A stretch of 64,000 nt of DNA from NCBI GenBank assembly GCA_963805065.1, contig CAWDSS010000010.1, positions 83,696 to 147,695 on the forward strand, read 5' to 3'. The notes under the pieces are model-generated. The model worked only from the letters and a program-made list of their open reading frames with translations, did not search any database and had not been told where the DNA came from. The translations under genes were made by a program, and so were the position numbers. Shown one piece after another: positions 44,587 to 62,558 of the stretch. Source of the DNA: Candidatus Omnitrophota bacterium. GTDB taxonomy: Bacteria; Omnitrophota; Gorgyraeia; Gygaellales; Profunditerraquicolaceae. Numbering within the stretch: position 1 is the first letter of the stretch; each line of letters opens with the position of its first letter.

Positions 44587-44923
44587 TCTGGACGGTTATT
44601 TCCTCAAGCCCACCTTTGGTGAACTGGCTGACAATATCCGCAACTGTTCCCGGGATAGCCCGATAAGCCTTGATCCCGCCTTCATTAAGCTTTTGAACCG
44701 CCCTACTACCCATTCCACCGGTAACCACAGCATCAATCTTCTTCCCCATTAACGCGTTCATTGGCTGGCACATACCGTGCGCATGATGTTGATTGGCATT
44801 GTCAATAATCTCTACGGAATCTTTCTCTGTATCAACGATGGTAAAATACGGCGCGCTGCCGAAATGCCCATAAACCTTTGCGCTCTTGCCTTCATTTGTT
44901 TCTGTTGGAATGCATAACTTCAT
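44558..44923 (-). CDS. NifB/NifX-family (dinitrogenase Fe-Mo cofactor biosynthesis domain) protein
   Basis: Start taken at MKLCIPT (Met14 of the track ORF), giving an ATGA overlap with the upstream gene. Segment HFGSAPYFTIVD...HHAHG. Confidence 0.8.
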   Translation of the reverse strand: MKLCIPTETNEGKSAKVYGHFGSAPYFTIVDTEKDSVEIIDNANQHHAHGMCQPMNALMGKKIDAVVTGGMGSRAVQKLNEGGIKAYRAIPGTVADIVSQFTKGGLEEITVQNACAQHGCH

Positions 44924-45516
44924 TTTGCTACTCCTTTCTTGGCTATAATAACAGTTTGACAAATATCCCTATAAACCTTAACAATCAATCCTGCTTTCTC
45001 TAAGTATTCTTTTACGCCCGATAATGACATTTTAGACGCCGCATGGCTATGGCCATCTAACGCATGCACTTTTTCCATAATCTTCTCGCCTCTTTTATTC
45101 AAATCTGCAATGATGAGCTTGTTTTTCGTTACTCTTATCATCTCCTTTAAGCATTTAACCGGATTTTTAGCGTGATGAATGAAATTCACTGAAATCACAT
45201 AATCAAAAGAGTTATCTTTATATTTTAACCTTTCGGCATTCATGATTTTAAGCGATACAGATTTATCAAGTTTAAGGCTTTCAAGCTTTAGCTTGGCTAC
45301 GTCTTGAGCTTTTCTATCCAGGTCGATTGAAACTACCCTTAAACTATTCTTTGCCAAAGCAACCGCCATATGGCCCCGGCCTGTACCAACCTCAAGAATT
45401 TTCCCTCTTGAAATTCTGGCTTTTGTAAGAATGAATTTTCTGGCTTTAGGGATATCGTAGCCATACTTTTTGAATAACTTCAGCCTATCTTGATCCTGCT
45501 TTATTAAATTATCCAT
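44920..45516 (-). CDS. class I SAM-dependent methyltransferase
   Basis: 198 aa with motif I ILEVGTGRGHMA. Confidence 0.8.
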   Translation of the reverse strand: MDNLIKQDQDRLKLFKKYGYDIPKARKFILTKARISRGKILEVGTGRGHMAVALAKNSLRVVSIDLDRKAQDVAKLKLESLKLDKSVSLKIMNAERLKYKDNSFDYVISVNFIHHAKNPVKCLKEMIRVTKNKLIIADLNKRGEKIMEKVHALDGHSHAASKMSLSGVKEYLEKAGLIVKVYRDICQTVIIAKKGVAK

Positions 45517-45813
45517 TTAACCCACCCTTTTAACCATTCCGCCTTCAATCTTGAGTGCCTTTGCGTGCAATAAAACATCCGCGATTTTTTTATGGGCAGA
45601 ATTAATAATATTTCCGAAGGTCTGCCGAGAAATATCCATTTTCCTGGCGGCATCTTCCTGATATAACTCTTCAAAATCCGCAAGCCGCACTGCTTCTAAT
45701 TCATCTAAGGTAAGATTAACCTCTTCAAGCTTATCAATCGGGATACCGCGAGGTTTAAAGTAATTCGTATCAGGCTTACATCTTATTCTTCTACATCTAC
45801 AAGGCCTTGGCAT
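45517..45813 (-). CDS. DUF134-family putative DNA-binding protein
   Basis: 98 aa. MPRPCRCRRIRCKPDTNYFKPRGIP followed by an HTH-like C-terminus. Confidence 0.8.
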   Translation of the reverse strand: MPRPCRCRRIRCKPDTNYFKPRGIPIDKLEEVNLTLDELEAVRLADFEELYQEDAARKMDISRQTFGNIINSAHKKIADVLLHAKALKIEGGMVKRVG

Positions 45814-45844
45814 ATATCTTCCTTTTAGTTATTGGCATATGCTA

Positions 45845-45873
45845 ATAATATATTAAAAAGCATTTTTTGTCAA
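45845..45873 (-). promoter_or_regulatory. sigma70-type promoter TTGACA-17-TATTAT with adjacent near-palindrome
   Basis: -35 = rc of 45868-45873 and -10 = rc of 45845-45850. TTATTGGCATATGCTAATAA (about 45829-45848) overlaps the -10 and +1 region. Confidence 0.5.
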
Positions 45874-45905
45874 CAAAATTTAATGGGAATTTTAAAACGA
45901 CAACG

Positions 45906-46337
45906 CTACGGGAATTTAAGCCAGTCTTTTACCTTGGCTTCAATCTGATTTCTGACTTCTCTGGTTTTTGTTATTTTTTCTTCGTGCGAGCCGGTGAAAC
46001 CGGAAGGATCATCTAAATCCCAATGCATCCTTTTTGTAGCTGCTGTCCCGGGAAAAACAGGGCATTTTCCTGCCTGAGATTCATTACATACAGTCACCAC
46101 ATAATCATATTGTTTACCTTGCTTATAGAAATCGAATACACTCTTGGTCTTATTCTGGGAAATATCGATATCCACTTCTTTCATAACCTCAACAACCATA
46201 GGATTTAACTTGCCCGGTTCAAGGCCAGCGCTTTCTACCTCAAACCTATCACCTGCCATCTGCTTTAGGAATGCTTCAGCCATCTGTGAACGGGCAGAGT
46301 TATGCACACAGACAAATAGGACTTTTTGCTTATCCAT
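45906..46337 (-). CDS. arsC: arsenate reductase, LMW-PTP (thioredoxin-coupled) type
   Basis: 143 aa with the CX5R P-loop in VLFVCVHNSARSQ. Downstream Cys residues are present. Confidence 0.9.
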   Translation of the reverse strand: MDKQKVLFVCVHNSARSQMAEAFLKQMAGDRFEVESAGLEPGKLNPMVVEVMKEVDIDISQNKTKSVFDFYKQGKQYDYVVTVCNESQAGKCPVFPGTAATKRMHWDLDDPSGFTGSHEEKITKTREVRNQIEAKVKDWLKFP

Positions 46338-46352
46338 TAAGATTCTCCTTAT

Positions 46353-47312
46353 TTAAGCTAATATCTTCTGCAATAAATTAAACAGGTAGCCTGTGAATAT
46401 AATGCCCAGGGTAGTGATACCAAAGAAAATAGCTATCAACTTTAACTTCATTGCTCTTCTTAACATAATCGCCTCAGGCAGGCTTAACGCAGCGACTGCC
46501 ATCATAAATGCTAAAGCAGTGCCTAAAGGGAAGCCCTTCTGAAACAATACCACCGCAATCGGAACAATAGCTGCGCAACTGCCGTACATAGGGACACCTA
46601 TGAGAGTAGCTATGGGCACTGAAAATACTCCTGTCTTGCTTACAATTGATTGCACTGCTTGCTGAGGGACATAATTATGGATTGCGGCTCCTAACCCTAC
46701 GCCTACAAGTACCCACATCCATAGCTTCTTTAGGATGCATTTTGCTTCATTTATTCCGAAAAGCATTCTTTGTTTTATCCCCTTAGGTTTTATCTCGCAA
46801 TCTTCTTCTACGTTCCCGGTAATGATATCTTTTTCGATGTATTTCTCCAGCTTCATTTTGCCTAGGATAATTCCCGTAAAGATTCCGATTGCCATACCGC
46901 TGATTACATACGCTAGCGTGATCTTCCAGCCAAAAAATCCAAGCATTAATACGACTAGATATTCATTAATGAGCGGAGATGTAACAAGAAAAGAGAAAGT
47001 TACCCCTAAGGGGATTCCCGCATCTAAAAAGCTTATAAAAAGAGGAATTGAAGAACAGGAGCAAAACGGGGTAATCGCGCCAAATAGCGAAGCAAAAAAA
47101 TTACCCCACCCCTTAGTCCCCATAATCCAGCTTTTTACTTTCTCTTGTGATAAGAAGCTGCGTAAAAATCCTATGACTGAAATCATCACAAAGAGAAGCA
47201 GCATGATCTTTACGCTATCATAAATAAAAAAGTTAATAGAAGCGCCTAACGCGGAATTGGCGTTAAACTTCAAAACAGAATATGTCAACCAATCAACAAT
47301 TAACTGCAGCAT
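46353..47312 (-). CDS. arsP: DUF318/ArsP-type permease
   Basis: 319 aa, polytopic, with the vicinal-cysteine motif [10 protein letters not shown]. Lies in the ars operon. Confidence 0.75.
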
Positions 47313-47452
47313 GAATTCTTCTCCTTATCGGAAGGCCCACAACAGCATGGCTTTGATTTCGCCTTTTCTTCCATCTTCTTATCCATTTTCTCAAACAGCC
47401 CTTTAAAAAAAGTTCTTACTTTGCCTTTCTTGTTTCCAGTATTGTCTTTCAT
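47300..47452 (-). CDS. 50-aa Cys-rich small protein in the ars operon
   Basis: Below the track cutoff: [56 protein letters not shown] lies upstream and the ORF overlaps the arsP start by 13 nt. Confidence 0.5.
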
Positions 47453-47466
47453 ATGCTCTTCTCCTT

Positions 47467-47490
47467 TTATATAGCTAAGTGGCTATTTAT
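47467..47490. promoter_or_regulatory. imperfect copy of the ArsR-operator-like palindrome
   Basis: TTATATAGCTAAGTGGCTATTTAT lies between arsR and the Cys-rich ORF/arsP. Confidence 0.4.
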
Positions 47491-47502
47491 TAGGTAAAAA
47501 AA

Positions 47503-47844
47503 TTATTTCTTGCAACAAAGCCTTGCCCGGTTAACTCTTTTTAGCTTCTCCCGGTCTTTATTAACAATAACAGTACTGTTTAAGTGTTTCTTAAAACACA
47601 ATAATAACATTTTTAAAAGTTCGTTATCCCTCCTTAAATAGTAATTTGTCCAGAAACGATCTTGCTCGCTTTCAATTATACCGACGGCGCTGAGTTTTTT
47701 AAGATGCTTTGATACGCTGGGCTGAGTAATGCCTAGGACGAAAGCCAATTCACAAACACACATCTTCCGCACCTCAAGAAGCTTAAGGATCCGAAGCCTA
47801 TTCTTATCCGCCAATGCCTTTAGGGATTTTTCCAGTTCTTTCAT
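47503..47844 (-). CDS. arsR: ArsR/SmtB-family transcriptional repressor
   Basis: 113 aa with CVCELAFVLGITQPSVSKHLKKL (metalloid-binding CVC + HTH). Confidence 0.9.
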   Translation of the reverse strand: MKELEKSLKALADKNRLRILKLLEVRKMCVCELAFVLGITQPSVSKHLKKLSAVGIIESEQDRFWTNYYLRRDNELLKMLLLCFKKHLNSTVIVNKDREKLKRVNRARLCCKK

Positions 47845-47856
47845 GGTTTTCTTCTC

Positions 47857-47910
47857 ATTTATATAGCCATATGGCTATATAAATATAGCATTGCGGTTTC
47901 ATTTTGTCAA
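47857..47910 (-). promoter_or_regulatory. promoter TTGACA-17-TATATT overlapped by a perfect 28-nt palindrome (candidate ArsR operator)
   Basis: Palindrome ATTTATATAGCCATATGGCTATATAAAT at 47857-47884. -10 = rc of 47882-47887 and -35 = rc of 47905-47910. Confidence 0.6.
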
Positions 47911-47986
47911 TCTTTTTTTCCTATTCGCATTCTATTGAAAAAACAATTCTGGATTATTTCTGATATCTCTGTCCACATAGTAGCCC

Positions 47987-48305
47987 AAACCTCTCTAGTT
48001 TATCCTCGAGAAACTGACCTAATTCCTAGTTTATGGCCATATTCGCATTGAGCAATTTCTACAATAATCGCAAATAGGCATAAACTAGCGCCCATAAACT
48101 ACGAGAGGAATTAGCCAATTACTTGAATATTTTCTTTTATAAATCCTCTCTTTTTCCGACGGAGATCCTGTTTTAAAATATTACAGCATTCTCCGACGAG
48201 AATAACGCCATAACTCCTAGGGACATCGCCAGATAAAAAATCCCCGACAAGTTTTCCTCATCGGGGATATGTTGTAACTCATTGCCTCTCAATGAGTTAC
48301 GGATG
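47987..48305. repeat. family F2 repeat, copy 2
   Basis: See 38059-38372. Confidence 0.6.
48233..48268 (-). terminator. orphan Rho-independent terminator
   Basis: On the minus strand: ATCCCCGA-13 nt-TCGGGGAT followed by TTTTTTAT. No gene lies upstream of it. Confidence 0.55.
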
Positions 48306-48307
48306 TT

Positions 48308-48365
48308 GGGGTCACTGGCTGGACGACGTTAGAACCTGTTTGATAGCGACTTAACGCTGCCTACC
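48308..48365. repeat. second copy of the 57-nt block at 29618-29674
   Basis: GGGGTCACTGGCTGGACGACGTTAGAACCTGTTTGATAGCGACTTAACGCTGCCTACC. Confidence 0.85.
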
Positions 48366-48412
48366 GGCCTAACTCCTAGGGACATCGACCTAAGTCTTTA
48401 ACACCCTAGGAC

Positions 48413-48541
48413 ATAAAAATAGCCATGATCACGTTAAGTAATCATGGCTATTTGCCTCTCTCCTGTACAGAGGAGAGAGAATTTACTGGGGTCCCTCTCC
48501 TATTAGCCGAGGGAAATCCGCTCTTAATTTTACACAGGTCA
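48413..48541 (-). ncRNA. candidate small RNA 1 (degenerate promoter + conserved leader + two hairpins + terminator)
   Basis: On the minus strand: CTGACA-15-TATAGT (rc of 48542-48568), then leader L3. Next a 9-bp hairpin CTCTCTCCT/AGGAGAGAG (48456-48479). Then terminator AGCCATGAT/ATCATGGCT + ATTTTTAT (48413-48449). No ORF. Confidence 0.25.
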
Positions 48542-49136
48542 ACTATACAGCAATACCTAAGTTGTCAGCCATATTTTGGACTTTAGAGATACTATTCCTC
48601 GGCGCATTCTCGACGGGTGAGCGGACATAAATGGCCGAAATTGTGTCCGTTTTGTCCGGTCATTTTTATCTCTATTTTCCGTAACTCTTTGTAAGGTTAG
48701 GCGATAGCGATGTCCGCCTTACTTTGTCCGGACATGGGCTTATTATAACCACCATTTGAAGCACCTGGCTTCTGTATCTCAGCCAGTATACCAAACCAAG
48801 AGCCAAAAACCACCCAAAACCAGCCTTAAAAAAGTGAGAATTTTTAAGGGGAATTTGGCTATTTTTTAGGTTTTTCGCCCCCAGAGGGGTACGGTAATGA
48901 TGAGACCTGTCAAATAACGAGTTGGCCTATATCCTAACCTGCGGTAAAATATAGGCTTAACTGACAGTCATGCCAGTTAATTTTTCAAAGGAGAAAACCA
49001 ATGGACTACACCAAATCTTATACCATAAACGGCACCCCCCCCCAAGCGTTTGAAACGTCGCCAGATACAAAGAGCCCGACGAAACTTTCTCGTCGGGCAA
49101 TTGTCGTATCTCTTTATCTCTCAATGAGTTACAATA
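48482..49136. repeat. ~655-bp tandem unit 1
   Basis: Aligns by eye with 49137-49650 over leader, promoter-like, TGTCCGG-rich and transposase-5' segments. Confidence 0.8.
48878..49035 (+). repeat. bipartite hairpin element, copy A (full; ends after 12 transposase codons at a C9 run)
   Basis: CCCCAGAGGGG; hairpin 1 GCCTATAT-16-ATATAGGC (48925-48956); hairpin 2 TTAACTGACA-GTCA-TGCCAGTTAA (48957-48980); AAGGAG; ATGGACTACACCAAATCTTATACCATAAACGGCAC. Confidence 0.85.
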
Positions 49137-49187
49137 ATTGGGGTCCCCCTCCTATTAGCCGAGGGAAAACCGCTCTTAATTTTACAC
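49062..49187 (-). ncRNA. candidate small RNA 2 (TATAAT + conserved leader + terminator)
   Basis: On the minus strand: -10 TATAAT (rc of 49194-49199) with a weak -35, then leader L4 (rc of ~49138-49175). Terminator GCCCGACGA/TCGTCGGGC (49073-49097) + CTCTTTGT. No ORF. Confidence 0.25.
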
Positions 49188-49650
49188 AGGTCAATTATAC
49201 CGCAATACCTATATTATCCAGCATATTCTGGACTTTAGAGATACTATTCCTCGGCGGATTATCGCCGTGGTGGGGGACATAAATGGCCGAAATTGTGTCC
49301 GTTTTGTCCGGTCATTTTTGGCTCTAATTTCCCTAACTCTTTGAAAGGTTAGGACATAGCGATGTCCGCCTCATTTTGTCCGGACATGGGCTTTTTCTGC
49401 CCCATTTTTGTCCTTAATACACCAAAAACCACCCAAAATCAGCCCTAAAAAAGTGAGAATTTTTAAGGGGAATTTGGCTATTTTTATGTTTTTTGTCCCC
49501 AGTGGGGTACAGAAATTATGAGACCTGTCAAATAACGAGTTGGCCTATATTCTAACCTGCGGTAAAATATAGGCTTAACTGGCATAACTGCCAGTTAATT
49601 TTTCAAAGGAGAAAAATAATGGACAACACCAAATATTATACGCAATCTTT
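49137..49650. repeat. tandem unit 2
   Basis: See 48482-49136. Confidence 0.8.
49497..49641 (+). repeat. bipartite hairpin element, copy B (full, degenerate 3' part)
   Basis: Hairpin 2 is perfect: TTAACTGGCA-TAAC-TGCCAGTTAA (49575-49598). The element ends ATGGACAACACCAAATATTATAC, 14 nt before the stop of the convergent amidohydrolase gene. Confidence 0.85.
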
Positions 49651-49654
49651 CGAA

Positions 49655-51328
49655 TTATTTCCTCAACTCGTAAACCTTACGTCCACCAACCCAGGTAGAT
49701 AAGACTTTGGGATAGTTAGCGGAAAATTCTTTCGGCGCAACTGTATAAAGATCTCTATCAAAAACGCTCATATCTGCTTTTTTCCCAACTTCCAATGTGC
49801 CAATATCATTTTTACCGGTCGTCTTGGCACTGCCTACGGTAAAACCTTTAATTGCATCTTTAACGCTGATAGGTGGATGAACTTTAGGATCACCTCCTCC
49901 AGTTGTGGCTACTCCAATAACTACTAAAGAAGGACTGTAATCCGGAGGCGAGACGCTAAAATCAGTGCTCAGCCCGACAGATAGACCTGCGTCGATTAGT
50001 TTTTTGATCGGATACGCCCGGGAAGCCCGCTCGCCATAATAATAAGCGGTATCGCTTTCCACCGGCCAGAAACCAGGTTGGACTGTAGTTACTACATGGC
50101 CATTAAACTTCTTAATCCGTGCGATCTGTCCATCAGCAGGAAATGCTAAATGGATTAAGGTATGAATCCCCTTTAACTTCCCTTTTTCTGCTATTACTTT
50201 ATCCAACGCGTCAAGAACCGCATCGATTGCTTTATCTCCCTGAACATGGTAGTGCATGTTCATCCCATATTCTTCTACCTTAGCCACAATTCGATTTAAA
50301 TTGAGCTCATGTCCGCCAGCATCATCGGTGTAAATTTCTTGCAGACCGTGATTCCCTTGCTTATTTTTCCAACTGGTCCATGCCTGTCCTCCGGCATAAG
50401 CTCCGTCAACAAAGATCTTGCAGCCGACAAAACGAACCAAATCGGTATCTTGGTTCAAATATTTTGCTGCGTCATCAACATCGCTCAAATTAAAAATTGT
50501 ATAACAATAATTGACGCGCAAGGGAAGTTTCCCTTCTTTTTCCAGCTCTTTAAAGATCTCCGGCCGCATAAAACGGACTCCAGGACCCCCCATCAAATCA
50601 ACCACACCGGTATAGCCTAATGAAGCCCAGCGTTGAGCCAGTTCTTGAGTACCAGTTTTGATGTCTTTGGAATCAAACATGGCAAACATCTTCTTGGTCG
50701 GAATAATCATTGCTGATTCACGAAGCATCCCTGTAAGTTTCCCATTCTCCACGCCCATCTTTCCACCCAAAGGAACAGGTGTGTTTAGAGTAATCCCAAC
50801 AAGTTTAATTGCTGCAGTGTTTATAATTGCATTGTGACCTAATTTATCGCCTAAAAATACTGGGTGGCTTCCGCTTACTGCATCAATCTTAGCCAAATCT
50901 GCCAAAGACCACTTGTCGTAATCCCTGAGTGAAAATCCTACACCAATAACGAACCCTCCATCGGAGACGCTTTTAACTTTTTGGGCCAACACCTTTGCTA
51001 TATCATCGGCATTCTTACAGTCGATGAGGTTCGCGCCGGCATAAAAGAAGTATCCAGTTTCCAGCAAGTGAACATGACTATCAATAAAACCAGGATAAGC
51101 TACTCCCCCTTCAAGGTCAATAACCTCAGCGTTTTTGTATTTTGCGGGATCAACATTCCAGGCCTGGACAACCCCATCTTTTACAAGGAGGTTCTGCGCT
51201 TTCTGTTCTGCATTAATATAAATTGTCCCATTTGTAAAAAGCTGAATCTTATCCTCGGCATTTACTACACCAGAAAAACAGAACATACATACTGCAAATA
51301 GAACAAAGACATAGCTAAACTTTTTCAT
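49655..51328 (-). CDS. secreted amidohydrolase-family metal-dependent hydrolase
   Basis: 557 aa with a signal peptide. GFIDSHVHL metal-binding motif. Amidohydro_3-like length. Confidence 0.85.
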   Translation of the reverse strand: MKKFSYVFVLFAVCMFCFSGVVNAEDKIQLFTNGTIYINAEQKAQNLLVKDGVVQAWNVDPAKYKNAEVIDLEGGVAYPGFIDSHVHLLETGYFFYAGANLIDCKNADDIAKVLAQKVKSVSDGGFVIGVGFSLRDYDKWSLADLAKIDAVSGSHPVFLGDKLGHNAIINTAAIKLVGITLNTPVPLGGKMGVENGKLTGMLRESAMIIPTKKMFAMFDSKDIKTGTQELAQRWASLGYTGVVDLMGGPGVRFMRPEIFKELEKEGKLPLRVNYCYTIFNLSDVDDAAKYLNQDTDLVRFVGCKIFVDGAYAGGQAWTSWKNKQGNHGLQEIYTDDAGGHELNLNRIVAKVEEYGMNMHYHVQGDKAIDAVLDALDKVIAEKGKLKGIHTLIHLAFPADGQIARIKKFNGHVVTTVQPGFWPVESDTAYYYGERASRAYPIKKLIDAGLSVGLSTDFSVSPPDYSPSLVVIGVATTGGGDPKVHPPISVKDAIKGFTVGSAKTTGKNDIGTLEVGKKADMSVFDRDLYTVAPKEFSANYPKVLSTWVGGRKVYELRK

Positions 51329-51414
51329 AAGGCTTATCTCCTTCCATCCTAAAATAACTTAAAATAATTCCAGTTAATCAAGAATTTCTTCTTCTAATTC
51401 GTAGTCCTTAAGAC

Positions 51415-51486
51415 CCAACGGTAAAATATAGGTTTAATAATAATTATCTCAACTAACTTTTCAAAGGAGAAAACCAATGGACTACC
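51415..51486 (+). repeat. bipartite hairpin element, copy C (degenerate)
   Basis: CAACGGTAAAATATAGGTTT...AACTTTTCAAAGGAGAAAACCAATGGACTAC. Hairpin 2 is eroded. Confidence 0.65.
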
Positions 51487-51506
51487 GCTGGCTCTTTACC
51501 CAAGAA

Positions 51507-52613
51507 TTACTTTAATTCTGCGGAAACATCTTTGGCCTGCCCTAACTTCTGCAGATCTTTGTCTTTAAGCACCTTAACATCGGCTGTTTTTAAATTAAGC
51601 TCTTTTAAATCTATCATCCGCACGCTTCTGTCATTATAGGTGTGGTAAAAATACCTGGAGTTTGTCAAATCCGCAGCGCAGGTCCATTGCGTAGTATCGT
51701 AAATTGTTACTCCGTTTTGCTCCCCCTTTACTGCGCCTAAGGGGATGTCAAATTGGTCTAAGATATGGAAGGCAACAGCAATACCCTCGTCAATGTTTTT
51801 AGCCGGGAGGCTTGAGTTGACAAGGAATGCCGCACGCACAAACCGCGATGGAGGCGTAAAGTCTCCAGGAAGGCCGATTGCCCCTGAACCCTGGCCAAAC
51901 TGCACAAACTGATTTCCATTGATCGTAATTGCAGGGTTATTTTCTGCCTTTATGCCGATATAGTTTCTTAGGTTTGTGGTCTGCCAGATATAATCAGGAG
52001 AATTTGTAATAACATTTACCTTGTTATCATAGATATTGAGTTTTCCCGTCACATATTCAACTATCGCAGCATCGCCGGTTTTATCCGAAATAAACATATG
52101 AAACGGCGGAGGATAGCCCAGCCCAGCTTGCACAACTGTAGAAACATGAATTTTTGGCAATTGCTCGCGCACTTCAGCCACACTTGAGCAGGTGGCTAAA
52201 ATCCATGAAGCCACCTCAAGGCAGGATATTGTGCTGGGGTAATCTGCCTCTGCCACATTTTCATATTGTGCGTATCCCGGGAAAAGGAAACTTCCGACGT
52301 GAAGACCCTCTTCATTTAATCCGTCGTCAACGAGCTTCTCTCCTGAAGGAGCAAAACCAACGAAGCCGTATTTTACCTGCCAGCTCATACCGGGTTTGCC
52401 TGTGGGAGTTTGCCCTACATACTTGTAGTTTCTGGGCACCGCGATCAAGTCGTGCGACATAAAACTATCGGCAAATTCCATCGTGCGCGCAAAAATATAA
52501 TTGTCGTCCTGTGTCTTGATTTGTATGCCTGTGCAGGCAAAAGCGTTTGTGGAAGTCAAAATAAGGATAAATAAAAACGCTATGACTGTAAAAAAACCAA
52601 TGTGTTTTTTCAT
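51507..52613 (-). CDS. choloylglycine hydrolase / linear amide C-N hydrolase (Ntn) family, secreted
   Basis: Start taken at MKKHIGFF (Met11 of the track ORF). The signal peptide ends AFA|C, exposing the Cys nucleophile (CTGIQIKT). Confidence 0.85.
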   Translation of the reverse strand: MKKHIGFFTVIAFLFILILTSTNAFACTGIQIKTQDDNYIFARTMEFADSFMSHDLIAVPRNYKYVGQTPTGKPGMSWQVKYGFVGFAPSGEKLVDDGLNEEGLHVGSFLFPGYAQYENVAEADYPSTISCLEVASWILATCSSVAEVREQLPKIHVSTVVQAGLGYPPPFHMFISDKTGDAAIVEYVTGKLNIYDNKVNVITNSPDYIWQTTNLRNYIGIKAENNPAITINGNQFVQFGQGSGAIGLPGDFTPPSRFVRAAFLVNSSLPAKNIDEGIAVAFHILDQFDIPLGAVKGEQNGVTIYDTTQWTCAADLTNSRYFYHTYNDRSVRMIDLKELNLKTADVKVLKDKDLQKLGQAKDVSAELK

Positions 52614-52648
52614 GATCTTATTCCTTTCTACATTATTTTGCACCGACC

Positions 52649-52694
52649 GAGTTGGCTTATATCCTAACCTGCGTTAAAATATAGGCTTAACTGA
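52649..52694 (+). repeat. bipartite hairpin element, copy D (left half only)
   Basis: GAGTTGGCTTATATCCTAACCTGCGTTAAAATATAGGCTTAACTGA. The right edge is the stop-codon region of gene 52687-52968. Confidence 0.8.
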
Positions 52695-52968
52695 CCTTTA
52701 TCCTGGTCAGTCTGTAAACTACAAAAGAATCTGGACATGTTATTTCTATGCTGCCATCTTTTTTCTCCCAACCAAGGTTATCAGAAAACCTCATCGCAAA
52801 AACTACTGGAAATACAGCATGAAATGCTCGACAGCACATTCCTTTCGGTTCAGGTGTTCTGTGCCCGATAATGAAAGACTCGCCCTTTTTAATTTTAGGC
52901 GCACCCGGGCAGCAATCCTTATTGTCCTTAATACTAAAAACCTCGCATTTAATTTTGTTATCAATCAT
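52687..52968 (-). CDS. TIGR04076-like small Cys-rich protein
   Basis: 93 aa. The pattern CCPGAP...GMCCRAFHAVFPVVFAMRF...W...G...ITCPD..VVYRL matches my memory of TIGR04076. Confidence 0.65.
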   Translation of the reverse strand: MIDNKIKCEVFSIKDNKDCCPGAPKIKKGESFIIGHRTPEPKGMCCRAFHAVFPVVFAMRFSDNLGWEKKDGSIEITCPDSFVVYRLTRIKVS

Positions 52969-52979
52969 TCATGTCCCAC

Positions 52980-53029
52980 TAGTTAATTTTTCAAAGGACA
53001 AAACCAATGGACTACACTAAATCTTATAC
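52980..53029 (+). repeat. bipartite hairpin element, copy E (right half only)
   Basis: TAGTTAATTTTTCAAAGGACAAAACCAATGGACTACACTAAATCTTATAC. It ends 8 nt before the SDR stop codon. Confidence 0.8.
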
Positions 53030-53037
53030 GTATTCCT

Positions 53038-53889
53038 TCACTTTGAAGCGAGTTCGCCGTACCAATAGGCCGCCGTTACTCCGCCATCCATAAGGAAATC
53101 ACTACCGGTGATAAATGTGCCGTCAGAACCCATAAGGAGTGCACCAACAGTTCCTACCTCATCGGGAGTACCACCTCTCCCAGCTGCAGACACTTCGATC
53201 ATGCGCCGGTAGCCCGCACCGCGCGGCCCCTCCAATTCATCCTTTGCGAGCGGAGTGAAGATGATTCCAGGGCTTATGGCGTTGACCCGCGCACCGCGTT
53301 TTCCCCACCGGACTGCTTCTGCCATCACCCGCAACGAATTCGCGCGTTTTGAAATCTGGTAGGCGCGAAGAGGATCAGCCACCTGATCGGGCTGAAGCAT
53401 CGGAAGATTGAGTAGGTCTTCAACCGGCGTGGTTGCAAGTGCCTTATTCTGCTCGGCAGATAGCGGCGGCAGACGATGCCCGGACTGTGACGAAATAACG
53501 ATACCAGAACCCCCGCGTGCGATGACATTGCCAAATTCCTCCAGCACAAGCGCTGTTCCGTAGAGATCGACCTTCAGGATCATCTCGAGCGACGCTTGGG
53601 AAGGAGAAACACCAGCAGCATGGATGACGCCGGAAATCTCGCCAAGGGAGGTGGCTGTCTTAACCAAACCTTGAACGGAAGCACGCAATGATACATCGAC
53701 AATCGCCGTGCTCACAGTGAAACCTGCATCACTCAAAGTTTTTGCCGCCGTATCGGCGTTGTCCTGACGCAAATCAGCAAGCACTATGTGCTTGCCTACG
53801 CTAACACGTCGCGCAATCGCTTGACCAATCGATCCGACCCCTATTACAACGATAACATTTGTTATATTTCCGAGTTTGCGCTTTTCCAT
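53038..53889 (-). CDS. short-chain dehydrogenase/reductase (SDR)
   Basis: 283 aa. IGVGSIGQAIA cofactor motif and YQISKRA (YxxxK). Clearly GC-richer than its surroundings. Confidence 0.9.
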   Translation of the reverse strand: MEKRKLGNITNVIVVIGVGSIGQAIARRVSVGKHIVLADLRQDNADTAAKTLSDAGFTVSTAIVDVSLRASVQGLVKTATSLGEISGVIHAAGVSPSQASLEMILKVDLYGTALVLEEFGNVIARGGSGIVISSQSGHRLPPLSAEQNKALATTPVEDLLNLPMLQPDQVADPLRAYQISKRANSLRVMAEAVRWGKRGARVNAISPGIIFTPLAKDELEGPRGAGYRRMIEVSAAGRGGTPDEVGTVGALLMGSDGTFITGSDFLMDGGVTAAYWYGELASK

Positions 53890-53946
53890 AAAGCTCTCCT
53901 TGAAAATGCCCGTTTTGACCCCCTAAAACCGTGATCCCAAACAACC

Positions 53947-54015
53947 CTACCCGTTAGGCTTCTCTCCCACAATCGCAACTATAGGATAATTAAAGTACAC
54001 AAATACCCTACTTAA
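53947..54015 (-). pseudogene. 3'-terminal fragment of a methyltransferase paralog
   Basis: Translates to ...RVFVYFNYPIVAIVGEKPNG*, compared with the C-terminus ...TDVYLNYPIAMVVGEK* of gene 54540-55343. Confidence 0.5.
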
Positions 54016-54031
54016 AACTAAGCCTCGAAAA

Positions 54032-54517
54032 TTATGGTCTTATTTGTTGAATAAACCCGAGGCGATCGATTACTTGCCAATGACCAGCAACCATACCATC
54101 CTTTATCAAATAAATAGTTTGTCCTGAGAAATTCAATCTTTTTCCAGTTGCAGGTAATCCTTGCAGATCACCTAAATGAGTTCCCGAAGCCTTCCAAATA
54201 ACAGCGACCAAATTATTTTCATGAACTAACGTACTAATTTCAAAAGTTAAATCTGGAAATGCTTTTCGTGAGTATAAAACTCGTGTTCGGTAAGTGGATC
54301 GGTTTAAAGTTTGTCCCTCCCACGCGTCACCTGGGTCGCTGAAAATTGTATAGGTCTCAGCAATCAACGAATCAATAGAACTCAGGTCTTCCTGGCTCCA
54401 TGTCTTATATAAGTCTTCTATAAGTTTCTTTTCCATCTCCATATTCAAAATCTTTCTTTTCGTTTCATCCTTAGTCCTGAACTTGCCCCGGTGAACCAGC
54501 TCAGGGTTCGCGCCCAC
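54032..54517 (-). CDS. SnoaL-like / ester-cyclase (NTF2-fold) protein
   Basis: FPDLTFEI...VAVIWKASGTHLGDLQGLPATGKRLNFSGQTIYLIKDGMVAGHWQVIDRLG. The start is probably an internal Met (codon 26 or 28). Confidence 0.75.
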   Translation of the reverse strand: MGANPELVHRGKFRTKDETKRKILNMEMEKKLIEDLYKTWSQEDLSSIDSLIAETYTIFSDPGDAWEGQTLNRSTYRTRVLYSRKAFPDLTFEISTLVHENNLVAVIWKASGTHLGDLQGLPATGKRLNFSGQTIYLIKDGMVAGHWQVIDRLGFIQQIRP

Positions 54518-54539
54518 AATTAGGTGGACAAACTTTGCC

Positions 54540-55343
54540 TTACTTCTCGCCTACAACCATAGCTATGGGATAATTCAGATATACATCCGTTCCTTTTCGA
54601 CAAGCACCCATCCCTATTTTGTCTTTCCCTATATCATCTATCACTGCCTGCCGAATTTTATAAATATCGCTCTCTTGTTTCGGAAAAGACGCCTTGATAT
54701 TATCTTCGAGTTTCATTTCTATCCGATAAAATTCTGCTTTTGTATTGATCAGTCCAGCTTTAGTAATCATGCCCTGAAGCTCAGTTAAAGGCAATGTTCG
54801 CACATGCGATGGATCTTTTAATTTCTCAACTCGATCATAGACATCGGATTGAGCCGCTGATGATGTAAAAACATCAATTACGGCCACCCTGCCTTTGGGT
54901 TTTGCTACCCTAATCATCTCTTTCAGTACCGCTTCTGGCCTAAGAAAGTGGTGAAAAGCATAGCGGCAAACAACAACAGAAAAGGCTGAATCAGCAAATG
55001 GCAGAGGCAAAATATCACCAATCTTCCAATTAATATTCGAGAGCTTCTTTTCTTGTTGTGACTTCTGTGCTTTTTCGATCATTGCAGGCACAAGATCCAT
55101 CCCTGTCATCATCTGAACATGTGGAGCAAGTGCACAAGCAAGCAATCCGGGGCCACAAGCAACGTCCAAAACCGTATCACTCGCATTTAACTGGGACATC
55201 TTAATCAGAAGATTTGTTGACTCCTCGTTGGAATGAGCAAGTATGTTGGCAAATGGAATTGCCTGCTTTGTAAATTGATCCATAATCTTATTAAATTGGT
55301 CTTTGACCAATTTATTATGCGACTCTTGATTTTTCTTATTCAT
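54540..55343 (-). CDS. class I SAM-dependent methyltransferase
   Basis: Start taken at Met34 of the track ORF (GGAGG upstream). Motif I VLDVACGPGLLA. The upstream 33 codons of the track ORF are read-through of element copy F. Confidence 0.85.
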   Translation of the reverse strand: MNKKNQESHNKLVKDQFNKIMDQFTKQAIPFANILAHSNEESTNLLIKMSQLNASDTVLDVACGPGLLACALAPHVQMMTGMDLVPAMIEKAQKSQQEKKLSNINWKIGDILPLPFADSAFSVVVCRYAFHHFLRPEAVLKEMIRVAKPKGRVAVIDVFTSSAAQSDVYDRVEKLKDPSHVRTLPLTELQGMITKAGLINTKAEFYRIEMKLEDNIKASFPKQESDIYKIRQAVIDDIGKDKIGMGACRKGTDVYLNYPIAMVVGEK

Positions 55344-55353
55344 TCTTTCCTCC

Positions 55354-55510
55354 CCCCAGTGGGGTACGGTAATTATGAGGCCTGTCAAATAACGGATTGG
55401 CCTATATTCTAACCTGCGGTAAAATATAGGCTTACCTGACATAACTGTCAGTTAACTTTTCAAAGGAGAAAAGCAATGGACTACACCAAATCTTATACCA
55501 TAAACGGCAC
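55354..55510 (+). repeat. bipartite hairpin element, copy F (full, continuous with the transposase ORF)
   Basis: CCCCAGTGGGG; hairpin 1; hairpin 2 TTACCTGACA-TAAC-TGTCAGTTAA (55432-55455); AAGGAG; ATG at 55476. Confidence 0.85.
55397..55425 (+). promoter_or_regulatory. promoter TTGGCC-17-TAAAAT inside hairpin 1 of the element
   Basis: Also present in copies A (48922-48950), B (49540-49568) and D (52652-52680, as TTGGCT). Confidence 0.45.
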
Positions 55511-56555: not shown

Positions 56556-57113
56556 CTAAAACTTACCTTGCAAAATTCTTATCTTGTTAAGCACTTCTTC
56601 AAACACAAGGTACTCGTGTCCTTTTAGTAATGCCCAATCGATTCCTTTGTTCTTGAACTCTGGATCCGCACCGATTTCCATATATGTTCGATAGTTACTA
56701 AGTTTAAACAGGGTCTTATTTACTCTTTCCAACAAAAATAGGTCACTCTTGATCTCCTGAGACTGCAACTTGTGTGCAATATTGTGCGCCAAATCATTTC
56801 GATGTTTTCTTAATTCCTGGATAGTCAAGACGTCATCTGAATCTATAGCCTTCATAAAATCACGTAAATATAAAAGGCACGCTTCAAACTCATTCTTATG
56901 TCGAGACAAAACATCTTTTTCATAGGACTTGAATGGGCTTCCTTCGCCAAAAGTCATATTCCAATAAAAAAACTTAATAGGCTTAACAATAAGACTCTTA
57001 ACCAATTCGTACGCAACCAGAATTAATCCGGTATAGGCAAGTACTTGTGTAAGATCTTCCTCTGTCAAATCACCAATCATACTCATTTGTCTTCTATCTT
57101 GTTTTTGATGCAT
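56556..57113 (-). CDS. HEPN-motif protein (185 aa)
   Basis: R-x4-H motif in ELRKHRNDLAHN (residues 105-110, nt 56784-56801), with an alpha-helical context. No named family recognised. Confidence 0.6.
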   Translation of the reverse strand: MHQKQDRRQMSMIGDLTEEDLTQVLAYTGLILVAYELVKSLIVKPIKFFYWNMTFGEGSPFKSYEKDVLSRHKNEFEACLLYLRDFMKAIDSDDVLTIQELRKHRNDLAHNIAHKLQSQEIKSDLFLLERVNKTLFKLSNYRTYMEIGADPEFKNKGIDWALLKGHEYLVFEEVLNKIRILQGKF

Positions 57114-57211
57114 AGCGCCCGATATAAGCGTAAACGGACAACATCAACCGATAACAAACTTTTGCTATTTTCATACTAATTGTTTTATTCATATTTTCCC
57201 TTTAACATATA

Positions 57212-58027
57212 TTAGACCACGTCACTCGATACTTTGACTGCGCCATCGAGTTTTCTATGAATAAATGAAATTAGCGTCATGATGTCCAGCGCATCTAGTT
57301 CAGACATTGGCCACGAGATTTTCGGCGCATGGGCAACTGGGTTTCGAATTGCTCCAAACAGGCCAATCAGAAGATTTGAGAAACCTCTCTGCTCGCTTTT
57401 CTCAGTCCCTGTTTTAAGTGAGCCAAGCGCAAGAATCGGCGCTTTACTAGAGAATGCCGCATTGACTAGATCTGCACCGTCTAAGCCCAAACCAGACATG
57501 TCTCTAATACGTTGCGCTACACCTTTTGTGGCTTCTAAGACAGCATGGAAATAGTTCTCTTCAAGTAGCTCGGCACGACAATATTTGAGAACCTCGGGAT
57601 GGACATTCCGGCTTTCAAGAGCAGCTTGAAGACGCCCTGCACGTGCAAGAGCGCCTTTTAGGGTGGTTTCTTTGCTTGACCTTGCGACCTTTCCGTCTTC
57701 TCTAACTTGTAAGCCGGAAAACGCAAGAACGACATTAAGTTCGCTTCGCCGCCAGTCGAAAGCATCTTTATCGCGAGCGTAGCTAACCGGATTCATTGCT
57801 CGATTAATAAACATGATCAGATGATTACCAACATGGTGCTTGTTTTGAGCGCCAGCCAGCGCGTTGAAAAGCCGCTTCCATTTCGTGAGTTCGGGTGAAA
57901 CGTCTTCAACCTTTATTTCCTGGAGAAGCCGTTCAATCTGAGAACCGGTAAGCCCACGCTGAGTGTCTGCTAGCACTTGACATGCTGCTTCAAGATGTTG
58001 AGAATCAAAAGACTCGATTCGTTCCAT
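57212..58027 (-). CDS. TIGR02391 / Hypoth_Ymh-like protein (HEPN clan)
   Basis: 271 aa. The C-terminal domain reads NYFHAVLEATKGVAQRIR...SEQRGFSNLLIGLFGAIRNPVAHAPK...ELDALD.MTLISFIHRKLD. Confidence 0.8.
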   Translation of the reverse strand: MERIESFDSQHLEAACQVLADTQRGLTGSQIERLLQEIKVEDVSPELTKWKRLFNALAGAQNKHHVGNHLIMFINRAMNPVSYARDKDAFDWRRSELNVVLAFSGLQVREDGKVARSSKETTLKGALARAGRLQAALESRNVHPEVLKYCRAELLEENYFHAVLEATKGVAQRIRDMSGLGLDGADLVNAAFSSKAPILALGSLKTGTEKSEQRGFSNLLIGLFGAIRNPVAHAPKISWPMSELDALDIMTLISFIHRKLDGAVKVSSDVV

Positions 58028-58144
58028 TATTTTTCTATTCTGCTCCCCGTTAATACTTAAGGCATTTTAATGATGAAAAAGGCTATCCTTCTTATGGGGA
58101 AAACCATCTGGCTATATCGGTGAGTTGGGCTAAGAATTAATTTG

Positions 58145-58978
58145 TTATGGCCTCCACATATCCTGTGCATCTGCTCTCATCTCTGAATCTCTTTCCTTAT
58201 CTAAACATTCTCTGCAAATATCCATATCGTAATATCCTGCCCCAGTCTCCGGATCGCCATCCACCCCTTCAACCTTAGTTATTTCTGATTCCCAAACTTC
58301 TTGATGGCAAACGTCGCACTCGACCCGCTCTTCAGCGTGCCCACAAAGGACACATTGCATTATAGATAAGTCAAAAGCTGATGCTCCACAAGAAGGGCAT
58401 TCCCACGTTAGCTTTCCTTCTTCTGAAAGTTGTTTTTCAAGCGCCTTCCCATGAGCTTCCCAAAATTCATATATTTCAATGAGTTCTTTCCATCGGTCAT
58501 CTTTGCGAAATTCTTGTTCTAAGTCTAACTGTAAATAACGCTTTGAAAAATCGAAAATAAGAGACAACATCCGTCCTATAATTCCCTTGGCCTCCTTTAG
58601 ATCAAGCACGAATTCATAGTGTTCTATGGCGTCCCTTATTTTCTTGCAAGAGTAAATTGTTTTCTTATCCTCTTCGCTTAAAGAGATTCCGGCTATTTTA
58701 AACAATCTTTCGACAGCCTTAAGGGTACTGACAGTAAACGCCTCTTTTGATGGATATTTATCCACATCTTGCCAAATAAAAGCCGGATGAACTCTGCGTA
58801 AACGTTCTTTCAAAAGAAGCTCTATCGCATGAGCGACATCCCTAATGGCTCTTTTCAGATCCCCTGCCTTAACCCCATCGGGATTGGTCAGATGCTCAAC
58901 CGCATGATTGAGTGAATCTTTGGCATTATTAATCAAATCGAATTTAATAGGATCGTTCTTCATCTTTCTTTGCTCCAT
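58145..58978 (-). CDS. HEPN-motif protein with C-terminal double zinc-ribbon (277 aa)
   Basis: KKIRDAIEHYEF (R-x4-H, residues 115-120). Four CxxC pairs (CPSC, CVLC, CDVC, CREC). Overlaps the upstream ORF by 35 nt. Confidence 0.6.
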   Translation of the reverse strand: MEQRKMKNDPIKFDLINNAKDSLNHAVEHLTNPDGVKAGDLKRAIRDVAHAIELLLKERLRRVHPAFIWQDVDKYPSKEAFTVSTLKAVERLFKIAGISLSEEDKKTIYSCKKIRDAIEHYEFVLDLKEAKGIIGRMLSLIFDFSKRYLQLDLEQEFRKDDRWKELIEIYEFWEAHGKALEKQLSEEGKLTWECPSCGASAFDLSIMQCVLCGHAEERVECDVCHQEVWESEITKVEGVDGDPETGAGYYDMDICRECLDKERDSEMRADAQDMWRP

Positions 58979-60572
58979 GATCTATCTCTTCAGCTTGCCT
59001 CAATCGTTCTGGCAAAACGGCTAAGTCTTCTTTGTATAGCTCTGCTAATGCTGAAGGTCGTTCAAACTCGTAAATTATTTTCCAGAGAGTGCCTAGCGCC
59101 ACATCTTGGGTAAATTGCTGATCTTCATTCTTAATCCTAATTATACCATCGTGCATATCTAATAATACTATCTTGTTTTTTAATGCTTCGGATTTGATTT
59201 TATTATACTCCCTCCCAGTTATCCAAGTAGCGTCGATTCCTTTCTTTTTACAAAGAGCCACGAATTTCTCAGGCGAGAAATAAAAAAACAAGGACATTCG
59301 CTCAAAAAGAATATCGAAAACAAAATTTTCTTCTAGTCCTGTAATAAATATAGGCCGATGCGTGGGAAACTGAACTTTATCTCTCATCTCCCAAACCGGC
59401 AAAAGCATATATTCAAAATGCTTCATAACCTTTTTTTCATCGAATTCTTTCCCATACGGACATTCCGACCAATCCTCAAAAAGCATATGCCATACTTGAT
59501 GCTGAAAATCTTTTTTACACACATCATTGCTTCTTTTCAACCTGGTAGTATTAAACGCGCCTAGTATTAAACATTCATCTATAACTAGATATTGCTCGCC
59601 TTTCTTCTTTGCCACCCGTAACAACTGGTTAACTTCCTTATGATAAGTGACTGTAAACCTTGACTTAACATCGGTTATTTTTGGTCTATTAAATTGAATA
59701 TCTATCCCCACAGATTCATTGATATAATCTGAAGCCATCTGCATTCTTTGTTTCTGCCTCAACACTCGTTCAAGTTGCTTCGTAAAAGGCTTCCCGTATT
59801 TTGAAACGAGTTCGCCGAATCTTTCACGTGCAGCTTGATCCGCTGGAGACATAGTTAACAAAGACTCGATATGGTCATTTACCGTACCGTCTTTTAACTC
59901 ACAAAAACCGAACTGACCCGTCGGCAATCGCACAAGAAGATCTCCCACCTGGATACAAGAGGTAATATCGGTTATCAATGCAAAACTGCTCTTGTCTTTG
60001 GAATTCAATTTATTAACTGTTGCCAACGTGCTTTGAAGTTGGGCGCTTTGTGATGGCCCAAGAGATACACCTTGTATCAAGGCGCGAACTTTCGTTCCGT
60101 CATCTCCCAATATTTGCCATGCGATTGAATCTGCAATCTCCCTAAGAAACATAGATTTAAATAACTGCTCGGAATAAGCTTTTCCAACCTTAGAATATCG
60201 TGGAACCGGAGGTTTTAGATCCCTCTTATATCTACTCACCTCCTCGCGATAAGACTTCCTCAATTGAGGTATCTTTGCTTCAATTTCTGGCAATAACTTT
60301 ACGATTTCATTCTGGGCTACACCGAATCCGTAATGACATTTTTCGAAGAACACTTTTTTTCTTCTGGTGTTTAATAAAAAGATGCGCGGCGATCCAAATA
60401 AACGCATACAAGTACTTCGAGCGCCGTGATGGGCAGCGTAATGAGAAAGCCGTCTAACCGTCTTCTCAAACTCAGTATTTGCTTTATTTGCCCGGTGAGC
60501 TAACCAAAATTCAATTATTTTTTCTGGAATTATAATTGGAGGGATAAATTTCGTGATTAATACCATCAACAT
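58944..60572 (-). CDS. 542-aa hypothetical protein with possible PD-(D/E)xK nuclease core
   Basis: Long uninterrupted ORF. The candidate motif ...ALITDITSCIQVGDLLVRLPTGQFGFCELKDG gives D...ExK spacing. No family recognised. Confidence 0.6.
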   Translation of the reverse strand: MLMVLITKFIPPIIIPEKIIEFWLAHRANKANTEFEKTVRRLSHYAAHHGARSTCMRLFGSPRIFLLNTRRKKVFFEKCHYGFGVAQNEIVKLLPEIEAKIPQLRKSYREEVSRYKRDLKPPVPRYSKVGKAYSEQLFKSMFLREIADSIAWQILGDDGTKVRALIQGVSLGPSQSAQLQSTLATVNKLNSKDKSSFALITDITSCIQVGDLLVRLPTGQFGFCELKDGTVNDHIESLLTMSPADQAARERFGELVSKYGKPFTKQLERVLRQKQRMQMASDYINESVGIDIQFNRPKITDVKSRFTVTYHKEVNQLLRVAKKKGEQYLVIDECLILGAFNTTRLKRSNDVCKKDFQHQVWHMLFEDWSECPYGKEFDEKKVMKHFEYMLLPVWEMRDKVQFPTHRPIFITGLEENFVFDILFERMSLFFYFSPEKFVALCKKKGIDATWITGREYNKIKSEALKNKIVLLDMHDGIIRIKNEDQQFTQDVALGTLWKIIYEFERPSALAELYKEDLAVLPERLRQAEEIDHGAKKDEERSY

Positions 60573-60658
60573 TGGTTCCCTAACTTCAGTAGATAACTTA
60601 CCGTACTTTAAATTCCGTTTTCTGTGATGGCCCCAAGTGTTCTTAAACGGCCGGTATT

Positions 60659-62428: not shown

Positions 62429-62558
62429 ATTTATGCCTCCTCGTATAACACAATTATAGGACTAATCCCTTCCTCTTACAAACACTTACGCTTGGCAATT
62501 CTCTAAATTCAATACATACGGCACTGCAAAAAAATCTCTGTAAACAGGGAAAATAAAG

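Follow-up and report, generated by a model that had tools for sequence, protein, structure and literature searches.

A stretch of 64,000 nucleotides (nt) of contig CAWDSS010000010.1 from a Candidatus Omnitrophota bacterium (the whole stretch is called the window in the following) contains six copies or part-copies of a repeat, here named A to F, which lie between accessory genes and upstream of a transposase gene. An earlier reading of the letters alone (the sequence-only reading) had offered two explanations for them: decayed copies of one insertion sequence (IS) that repeatedly landed between genes, or a structured recombination site that delimits gene cassettes. Our analysis favours the first. 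The six repeats are probably the leader debris of one repeatedly inserted IS and not a new cassette recombination site. The evidence that carries this is the identity of the repeat with the leader of the transposase gene, the ends of the IS in relatives, the nesting of copies in one another, the positions of the breakpoints and the missing conservation of the hairpins. For the sake of annotation hygiene, the repeats are to be labelled as IS leader remnants and not as a new recombination system.

The repeats are copies of a transposase leader

The sequence-only reading had described a full copy as a palindrome (CCCCAGWGGGG) followed by two hairpins (hairpin 1 and hairpin 2) and the beginning of the transposase open reading frame (ORF). 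All six repeats were confirmed, each on the plus strand; a profile search with the element recovered them close to the positions given before (A 48877-49034, B 49496-49641, C 51413-51485, D 52648-52713, E 52976-53029 and F 55353-55509). Repeat finding returned separate families of 182 nt (A, B and F), 59 nt (A, B, C, E and F) and 71 nt (A, B, D and F). The pattern AAGGAGAAAANNAATGGAC, searched with up to three mismatches, had six matches, which are the five expected ones and one weak unrelated match; shuffled sequences contained 0.45 matches on average, and none of 100 shuffles reached six. The hairpin-1 pattern was found four times, with 0.00 matches expected from shuffles.

For comparison, 166 loci related to the transposase were fetched (comparison loci and contigs carry L numbers). 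In every close relative the element is present once only, directly upstream of the start codon of the transposase gene, showing that it is the transposase-proximal part of the leader: the repeat consists of the last ~125 nt of the IS 5' leader and the first 9-35 nt of the ORF. As claimed before, an intact transposase follows copy F only, where a 354-aa ORF with rve_3 and HTH_32 domains is found. A second ORF of 354 aa (31822-32886) was considered as a transposase candidate and rejected, since it encodes an unrelated WG-repeat protein.

Breakpoints of the copies were taken from local alignments and are numbered relative to the start of the transposase ORF (Table 1). Copies A, B, E and C had been reported to break off 35, ~23, 23 and 9 nt into the ORF, and the alignments agree with this (~+35 for A). 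Beyond +35, copy A retains weak similarity to the ORF up to +51, but this stretch is better explained by the left end of the IS copy that follows.

The pairwise divergence among the copies is 4-15% and equals the divergence from copies in other metagenomes. The copies are thus independent or old insertions and not the product of one recent duplication; a recent duplication in situ is ruled out by these values. Copies D and E need not be one copy that was split by an insert.

A chimeric contig, joined by the assembler via short repeats, was considered as well. Metagenome contigs of relatives often end a few hundred nt upstream of the transposase, but the part-copies in the window are short (48-67 nt), mutually diverged and placed in unique flanks. 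Furthermore, positions 49552-51673 of the window recur with 100% identity in a public contig from a separate assembly (L167, 2122 nt), which reproduces the junctions between copy B and the next gene, between this gene and copy C, and between copy C and the gene behind it. These three junctions are therefore not artefacts of the window's assembly, and the chance that the array results from misassembly is negligible. Since contigs break in the leader, the habits of this IS matter for metagenome assembly.

The transposase belongs to an uncurated family with defined ends

The transposase matches the Pfam families rve_3 (3.4e-12) and HTH_32 (1.7e-08), both above the cutoffs, and is thus a DDE transposase. 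Homologues are numerous (1035 at E<=1e-10) and mostly come from metagenome bins of Omnitrophota and Planctomycetota. The best NCBIfam matches, to the models for IS481 (NF033577, 86 bits, cutoff 224) and IS3 (NF033516, 83.8 bits, cutoff 160), stay far below the curated cutoffs, so that the family is uncurated; the gene is a single frame of 354 aa and not a pair of ORFs with an IS3-style frameshift. This family, a distant relative of IS481 and IS3, is common in the two phyla. A comparison with the PDB gave no sequence match.

The ends of the IS could be defined in related clades, where a sharp-ended unit of ~1415 bp, made up of a 352-nt leader, the ORF and ~3 nt, is present in ten copies with unrelated flanks (L024, L025, L049, L092, L116, L035, L039, L088, L091 and L090). 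Its left terminus is CCTCCCCGGGCAGACGTCTGACTGCGG, and an imperfect inverted copy of this terminus is located within the last ~45 nt of the ORF. The resulting terminal inverted repeats (CCCCGGGCAGACGTCTGACTGCG on the left and CCCGCCCAGACGTGACTCGC, as reverse complement, on the right) match at ~18 of 24 positions. The sequence-only reading had named intact IS copies elsewhere as a finding that speaks against a cassette site; such copies exist, and they include the element in their left region. The outer left-end motif of the related clades (GGGCAG.CGT..GACTG) was searched for in the window and is absent.

In many respects the family behaves like IS481 and IS3: one transposase with helix-turn-helix and rve domains, imperfect terminal inverted repeats, sharp ends, many contexts and nested copies. 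It differs from them in its very long leader of 350-600 nt, in its termini (CC(T)CCCC...TGGGG, as opposed to the TG..CA type of IS481 and IS3), in the position of the right inverted repeat ~25 nt inside the right terminus and within the ORF, in the lack of a visible target duplication and in its strongly antisense orientation to the neighbouring genes.

Leader organisation and a possible inner left end

In the clade of the window the leader is longer, with ~580 nt; the additional part contains two minus-strand terminator-like hairpins and a block of ~210-250 nt, termed D2. Two such leaders are complete in the window (~600 nt, units A and B), and copies A and B are their last 150 nt, a point that the sequence-only reading had missed together with two further left-end fragments (fragments 0 and 1, Table 1). 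In fragment 0 unrelated sequence follows after the first 8 nt of D2. An exact 26-mer of this fragment occurs twice in the window (0 expected), and its minus-strand terminator-like hairpin (48268-48240) belongs to a module that is also found upstream of the transposase in relatives.

Conservation of the leader across the family is seen at the sequence level, in AGNGGGGTRC, ATGAGACC, CTAACCTGCGGTAAAATA and the ribosome-binding site. A block of ~40 bp (YYYAGNGGGGTRC..ATGAGAC) is conserved throughout the family and resembles the outer left end, both in the clade of the window (CTCCTAGGGACA compared with CTCCCAGCGGGGTACA) and in genome R3-B46 (GAGCGAACCACTTTTT compared with TTGCGACCTGATTTTT). R3-B46 holds three family copies; one of them (L098) has its full length, including the outer left end, and in another (L099) homology begins exactly at the palindrome, as it does in copy F. 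In the same genome, locus L101 contains a second copy that begins at the same palindrome position as F and L099. The 40-bp block would then act as an alternative inner left end, giving rise to short-form copies such as F.

The arms of hairpin 1 contain promoter-like hexamers on both strands (TTGGCC-17-TAAAAT on the plus strand, CTGACA-17-TATATT on the minus strand), which may function as promoters. Hairpin 2 together with TTTTT is terminator-like. With these features the element could also be a host intergenic regulatory repeat, a promoter-terminator module similar to repetitive extragenic palindromes or miniature inverted-repeat transposable elements (MITEs) that spreads alone and merely adjoins the transposase in one copy. 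Hexamers on both strands and a hairpin 2 that is terminator-like in both directions would suit such a module, and D2, a different repeat of the same genomes, behaves in this way. However, the part-copies contain 9-35 nt of the transposase ORF and have no common ends, and every other locus has the element only in a single copy that directly precedes the transposase. A regulatory repeat is therefore close to refuted and was given very little weight.

Nesting and placement of the copies

At least eight fragments of the left end or of the leader lie between 48.2 and 56.5 kb of the window, all in the same orientation, antisense to the host genes. Together with the mapped ends and the recurrent nesting in relatives, this supports the decayed-IS alternative of the sequence-only reading. 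Two junctions in the window are nested: unit B sits in unit A at ORF ~+35, as seen from the alignment to the leaders of relatives, and unit A follows directly on fragment 1. The left end of unit B (CCCCCCCCAAGCGTTTGAAAC..) matches that of L008 (CCCTAACCCTTTGAAAC..). Comparison of fragment 1 with the left-end motifs of L013, L018, L020 and L008 suggests that unit A inserted into it. Nesting in the same orientation is also found in three other genomes, at ORF +24 (L159), at ORF +123 (L072) and in the leader (L050).

The placement of the copies agrees with that of the family. Within 6 kb of family transposases, 518 of 631 ORFs of at least 150 aa (82%) lie on the opposite strand, and by a crude measure the stop codon of a convergent ORF is located no more than 15 nt from the transposase stop codon in about a quarter of the contexts (20 of 88). 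For B, C and E, breaks within 8-20 nt of a convergent stop codon had been claimed, which fits the distances determined here (13, 20-21 and 8 nt). Copy D overlaps the final codons of the convergent TIGR04076-family ORF (gap 0) and, according to the translation, provides its last two codons and the stop codon; behind copy F, 15 nt separate the stop codon of the transposase gene from that of the next convergent ORF. The right flanks of B, C, D and E hence resemble the normal right flank of the IS, with a convergent stop 0-21 nt away, and these copies are read as insertions that lack the part from the breakpoint to the right terminus.

We propose that the array would have arisen as a pile-up of at least eight insertions of one IS family, all in the same orientation. 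Some of them would have inserted into a copy already present, either in its first codons or in its left terminus (A into fragment 1, B into A); for the others (B, C, D, E and F) the landing place would have been close to the stop codon of a convergent gene, at a distance of 0-21 nt. The body of the transposase gene would then have been lost in all copies except F, probably by recombination between nested direct copies or by deletion or excision up to the right terminus. If nested direct copies collapsed by homologous recombination, the outcome would be several 5' fragments in a row and, after them, a single transposase gene. Copy F would be a short-form IS that starts at the inner left-end block.

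Copies C, D, E and F have no distal leader with its minus-strand terminators, and each has a gene next to it in the minus direction; A and B retain the distal leader and have no gene next to them. Loss of the distal leader may reflect selection, as it would reduce polarity on the downstream gene and keep the outward promoter.

The hairpins are not conserved in the family

The sequence-only reading had reported that hairpin 2 covaries. The leader core of 36 family members was aligned, and pairing was counted for the three helices described before. The compensating pair exists as described (CTGGCA/TGCCAG in copy B, CTGACA/TGTCAG in copy F), but it is a single pair without family-wide support, and copy A (CTGACA/TGCCAG), L004 and L008 are mismatched there. 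Paired cells amount to 51% for hairpin 1 and 61% for hairpin 2. The palindrome appears paired in 93%, solely by one-sided changes from C to T: GGGG is invariant and CCCC decays to TTT. RNAalifold predicted neither hairpin 1 nor hairpin 2 on the family alignment. Thus neither pair counts nor RNAalifold gave family-wide covariation for the two hairpins. Folding of single sequences gave z values of -2 to -5 solely for A, B and F of the window and their nearest relatives (L004, L008 and L009); other members, though 83-88% identical in protein, have no hairpin there. An Rfam search across the window gave nothing at the gathering thresholds and only chance-level matches in 47800-49700, and no tRNA or tmRNA target was found.

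The layout of the region is similar to that of an integron: a recombinase gene is divergent from co-oriented, packed and unrelated accessory genes, and a repeat is located near the 3' end of each gene. The sequence GTTAAGC fits the core-site consensus GTTRRRY, as noted before; however, no part-copy has a boundary at G/TTAAGC. The boundaries are at ORF +9, +23 and +35, in the loop of hairpin 2 and at -24, -52, -85 and -122. Further differences are the nature of the repeat, which is the leader and the first codons of the enzyme's own gene, its variable extents and the fold, which is not conserved. Hairpin 2 has only 24 nt; attC sites have a size of 57-141 nt. A search for an IntI-like or HUH enzyme, proposed in the sequence-only reading, remained negative among the ~50 window ORFs scanned with Pfam, none of which is a Phage_integrase, and a profile scan of the 166 related loci revealed no other comparable array. 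With unconserved hairpins, no recombinase besides the transposase among the ORFs scanned, boundaries off the site and an array that is unique among these loci, the cassette-site alternative is not supported. The resemblance to integrons is in layout only, and every testable defining feature is missing.

Observations that fit poorly and a possible role of genes in the leader

Several observations weigh against leader debris as the explanation. Copies C, D and E lack sequence at either end, which demands two losses each or arrival in an already truncated form. The right breakpoints cluster at +9, +23, +23 and ~+35, and AC precedes four of five of them. The left edge of the palindrome recurs as a junction (F at 55353, L099 at 9812, L101), and so does the position ~40 nt past this edge (D at 52648, L101, L139 at 1753); the L101 junctions are at 9200/9807. 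The edges of the 40-bp block thus adjoin foreign sequence in three genomes that are not related. Such recurrent junctions at both edges are not what random decay would give. In L101, one antisense lipoprotein-like gene lies inside the leader and is flanked by an identical duplication of ~40 bp that starts at the palindrome; this arrangement looks like an insertion into the leader and not like decay. The closest homologue of the choloylglycine-hydrolase-family (CBAH) gene between copies C and D (94% identity) is located two genes from a divergent 354-aa rve_3 gene. In the clade of the window itself the position of the left terminus is deduced from sequence comparison. Target-site duplications are not seen either: no direct repeat is evident at the ten mapped insertions, the boundaries of which are known to ~3 nt. 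Promoter-like sites are not above the level in shuffles (20 compared with 15.8 ± 4.4). The clustered breakpoints and the gene in the leader of L101 remain unexplained by debris.

In view of these points two other readings retain some probability. The first is a cargo or compound transposon, in which the left end of B (or A) and the right end behind the transposase would bound one mobile unit of ~7.5 kb, the six antisense genes would be passengers in the leader and the part-copies would be scars of successive mergers of such units. A complete left end in B and a complete right end in F would suffice for the transposase, and in L101, which has an intact left end, an antisense gene is placed in the leader between this end and the transposase. 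In addition, the neighbours of the CBAH and methyltransferase homologues are not conserved, the SDR gene has a foreign GC content, and the CBAH gene has the 94%-identical counterpart near another family transposase. On the other hand, the collections searched contain no second copy of the 7.5-kb unit, and L101 is the only case of cargo in the leader among the 166 related loci. The left flank of the unit is another IS fragment and the right flank a host gene, and thus no insertion-site pair or target duplication can be demonstrated; the internal part-copies C, D and E would have no role. We consider such a transposon unlikely, albeit the most serious competitor.

A DDE-driven capture platform that works like an integron is more doubtful still. 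Here the palindrome and the 40-bp block would be the analogue of attI, and genes would be inserted antisense into the leader, each with a partial copy of the site, and be served by an outward promoter. The window would then have gone through five such steps and L101 through one, and the CBAH gene near a second transposase would be a shuffled cassette. This would fit the transposase gene being divergent from a co-oriented, tightly packed gene array, the minus-strand promoter-like site in the element, the single-gene insert of L101 with its identical flanking duplication of ~40 bp, and the recurrence of the palindrome edge and of the ~40-nt position as junctions in three unrelated genomes. It does not fit the missing conservation of the hairpins, the divergence of 4-15% among the part-copies, the left boundaries of C, D and E, which differ among themselves, or the ordinary IS behaviour of the family (sharp ends, nesting, many contexts). 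A gene in the leader is seen in just two of ~150 contexts, which also counts against the cargo transposon. A long target duplication from a staggered cut was tried for the array and rejected: every order of three insertion events is geometrically impossible with the observed left and right extents. Should the capture platform exist nevertheless, cassette arrays could be built in a second way, by a DDE enzyme and without a tyrosine recombinase; we rate this as very improbable.

Other systems offer partial parallels to the IS. By eye, the conserved block matches the dif sequence of E. coli in part only. As in transporter IS and capture of the ISEcp1 type, an alternative inner left end is present (F, L099) and a gene lies between the left end and the transposase (L101). 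Unlike there, the genes are located upstream of the transposase, in the leader and antisense, and mobility of the composite is hypothetical. The IS1202 family and Tn7-like elements have rve-type enzymes, an extra transposase-binding site inside each end and insert in a fixed orientation beside a preferred kind of site (PMC10132070). IS1202 transposases have 441-457 aa, and the elements have TGT..ACA ends, 5-bp target duplications and dif or pdif targets (PMC10132070). They are a precedent for inner binding sites and for oriented, site-hunting insertion, yet they are a different family from the IS in the window.

The analysis documents an uncurated rve IS family that is very widespread in candidate phyla and has unusual habits: a leader of 350-600 nt, an inner counterpart of the left end from which short forms would result, strongly antisense placement near the 3' ends of genes and frequent self-nesting in the first codons. 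These habits also matter for the reading of accessory-gene islands in Omnitrophota.

Features of the region and accessory genes

Table 1. Fragments of the insertion sequence and genes between 48.2 and 56.5 kb of the window. Limits of copies are given relative to the start of the transposase ORF.
Feature	Position	Strand	Left limit	Right limit	Content
IS left-end fragment 0	48208-48313	+			Left-terminal motif CCATAACTCCTAGGGACATCGCCAGATAAAAAA, two minus-strand terminator-like hairpins, first 8 nt of the D2 block
IS left-end fragment 1	48368-48389	+			First ~22 nt of the left terminus (CCTAACTCCTAGGGACATCGAC), cut by the left terminus of unit A
Unit A, complete IS leader	48389-49035	+	full leader	ORF ~+35	Left end, two hairpins, D2 (48488-48734), linker, copy A (48878-49035)
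Unit B, second complete IS leader	49036-49641	+	full leader	ORF +23 (..TTATAC/gcaatc)	D2 (49140-49386), copy B (49497-49641)
Amidohydrolase gene	49655-51328	-			Pfam Amidohydro_3, 1.8e-69; stop codon 13 nt from the end of B
Copy C	51419-51485	+	-52	ORF +9	AT-rich sequence in place of hairpin 2
CBAH gene	51507-52616	-			Pfam CBAH, 7.3e-77; stop codon 20-21 nt from the end of C
Copy D	52648-52695	+	-85	hairpin-2 loop	Left edge ~38-40 nt past the start of the palindrome
TIGR04076-family small gene	52687-52968	-			NCBIfam, 46 bits (cutoff 33), residues 5-91 of 93
Copy E	52981-53029	+	-24	ORF +23	8 nt from the SDR stop codon
SDR gene	53038-53889	-			Pfam
SnoaL-like gene	54032-54517	-			Pfam
Methyltransferase gene	54540-55343	-			Pfam
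Copy F leader	55353-55475	+	-122, exact edge of the CCCCAG palindrome	continues into transposase	Inner left-end-like 40-bp block (CCCCAGTGGGGTACGGTAATTATGAGGCCTGTCAAATAACG), hairpin 1, hairpin 2 with T-run, ribosome-binding site
Intact transposase ORF, 354 aa	55476-56540	+			Pfam HTH_32 and rve_3; IS right end within the last ~45 nt

Copy C retains a minus-strand promoter-like site (TTGAGA-16-TATATT), and in copy F hairpin 1 contains the overlapping divergent promoter-like hexamers. The SDR gene has a GC content of 54%, compared to 41% in the window and ~40% in its two operon neighbours, suggesting a separate, recent foreign origin. Homologues of the CBAH and methyltransferase genes elsewhere have other neighbours, which at 80-85% identity decides nothing. 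DNA homology of the CBAH gene to its relatives ends at the ORF ends and is uninformative with respect to native flanks. In three other genomes (L170-L172) a CBAH homologue is translationally coupled to an LMWPc gene and located beside an SBF transporter gene.

The IS pile borders on an ars-type operon (44146-47844) that encodes ArsR, an ArsP permease, an LMWPc phosphatase and a methyltransferase. Directly downstream of the IS (56556-63569) defence-type genes are found, namely a weak HEPN-like gene, Hypoth_Ymh, two genes for proteins without a family, AIPR and DUF4238. Nearly all long ORFs of the window are on the minus strand, the transposase gene being the only clear plus-strand gene, and the cumulative GC skew declines steadily over positions 1-64000.

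The D2 repeat and associated modules

D2 is a discrete, sharp-ended repeat of ~210-250 nt that reads TGTCCGG...GGGACCCC on the minus (gene-sense) strand. Besides the two copies within the IS leaders (Table 1) it occurs solo in the window at 32974-33184 and 31567-31682, and it is also present in L127, L106, L082, L104, L078 and L168. The repeat contains repeated GGACA motifs, an invariant 7-bp inverted repeat (TGTCCGG/CCGGACA) and an internal TTGAYA-17-TATAAT box that faces the next gene; covariation was not seen in D2. A solo copy directly follows the stop codon of one gene and ends ~30-45 nt short of the start of the gene behind it. All copies are on the transposase strand, apart from one weak minus-strand match in L127, and the box therefore points in the direction of the flanking genes. 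Judging by these features, D2 looks like a MITE-like mobile promoter module. As part of the IS leader, D2 is followed by two terminator hairpins and may there form a small RNA gene.

The gene for the WG-repeat protein (31822-32886) is bracketed by two D2 copies, and the left one is a short form of ~125 nt with ATTACTGGGG on both sides. A module of ~250 nt, in which a conserved stretch of ~150 nt is joined by the exact 26-mer CTCCTAGGGACATCGCCAGATAAAAA and by two minus-strand terminator hairpins, recurs without D2 or transposase (38140-38400 compared with 48069-48330 in the window; 2904-3107 and 7162-7376 in L127). Hence either the IS left end is longer than mapped or this is a separate module.

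A protein of 136-151 aa with weak similarity to ECF-type sigma-70 region 2 is encoded immediately next to family transposases or D2 copies (window 33147-33602, minus strand; L013, L017, L023, L041, L078/79, L082, L086, L100 and L104). Its gene is often paired with a gene for a protein of ~350 aa, which has a Fic domain in the one annotated case.

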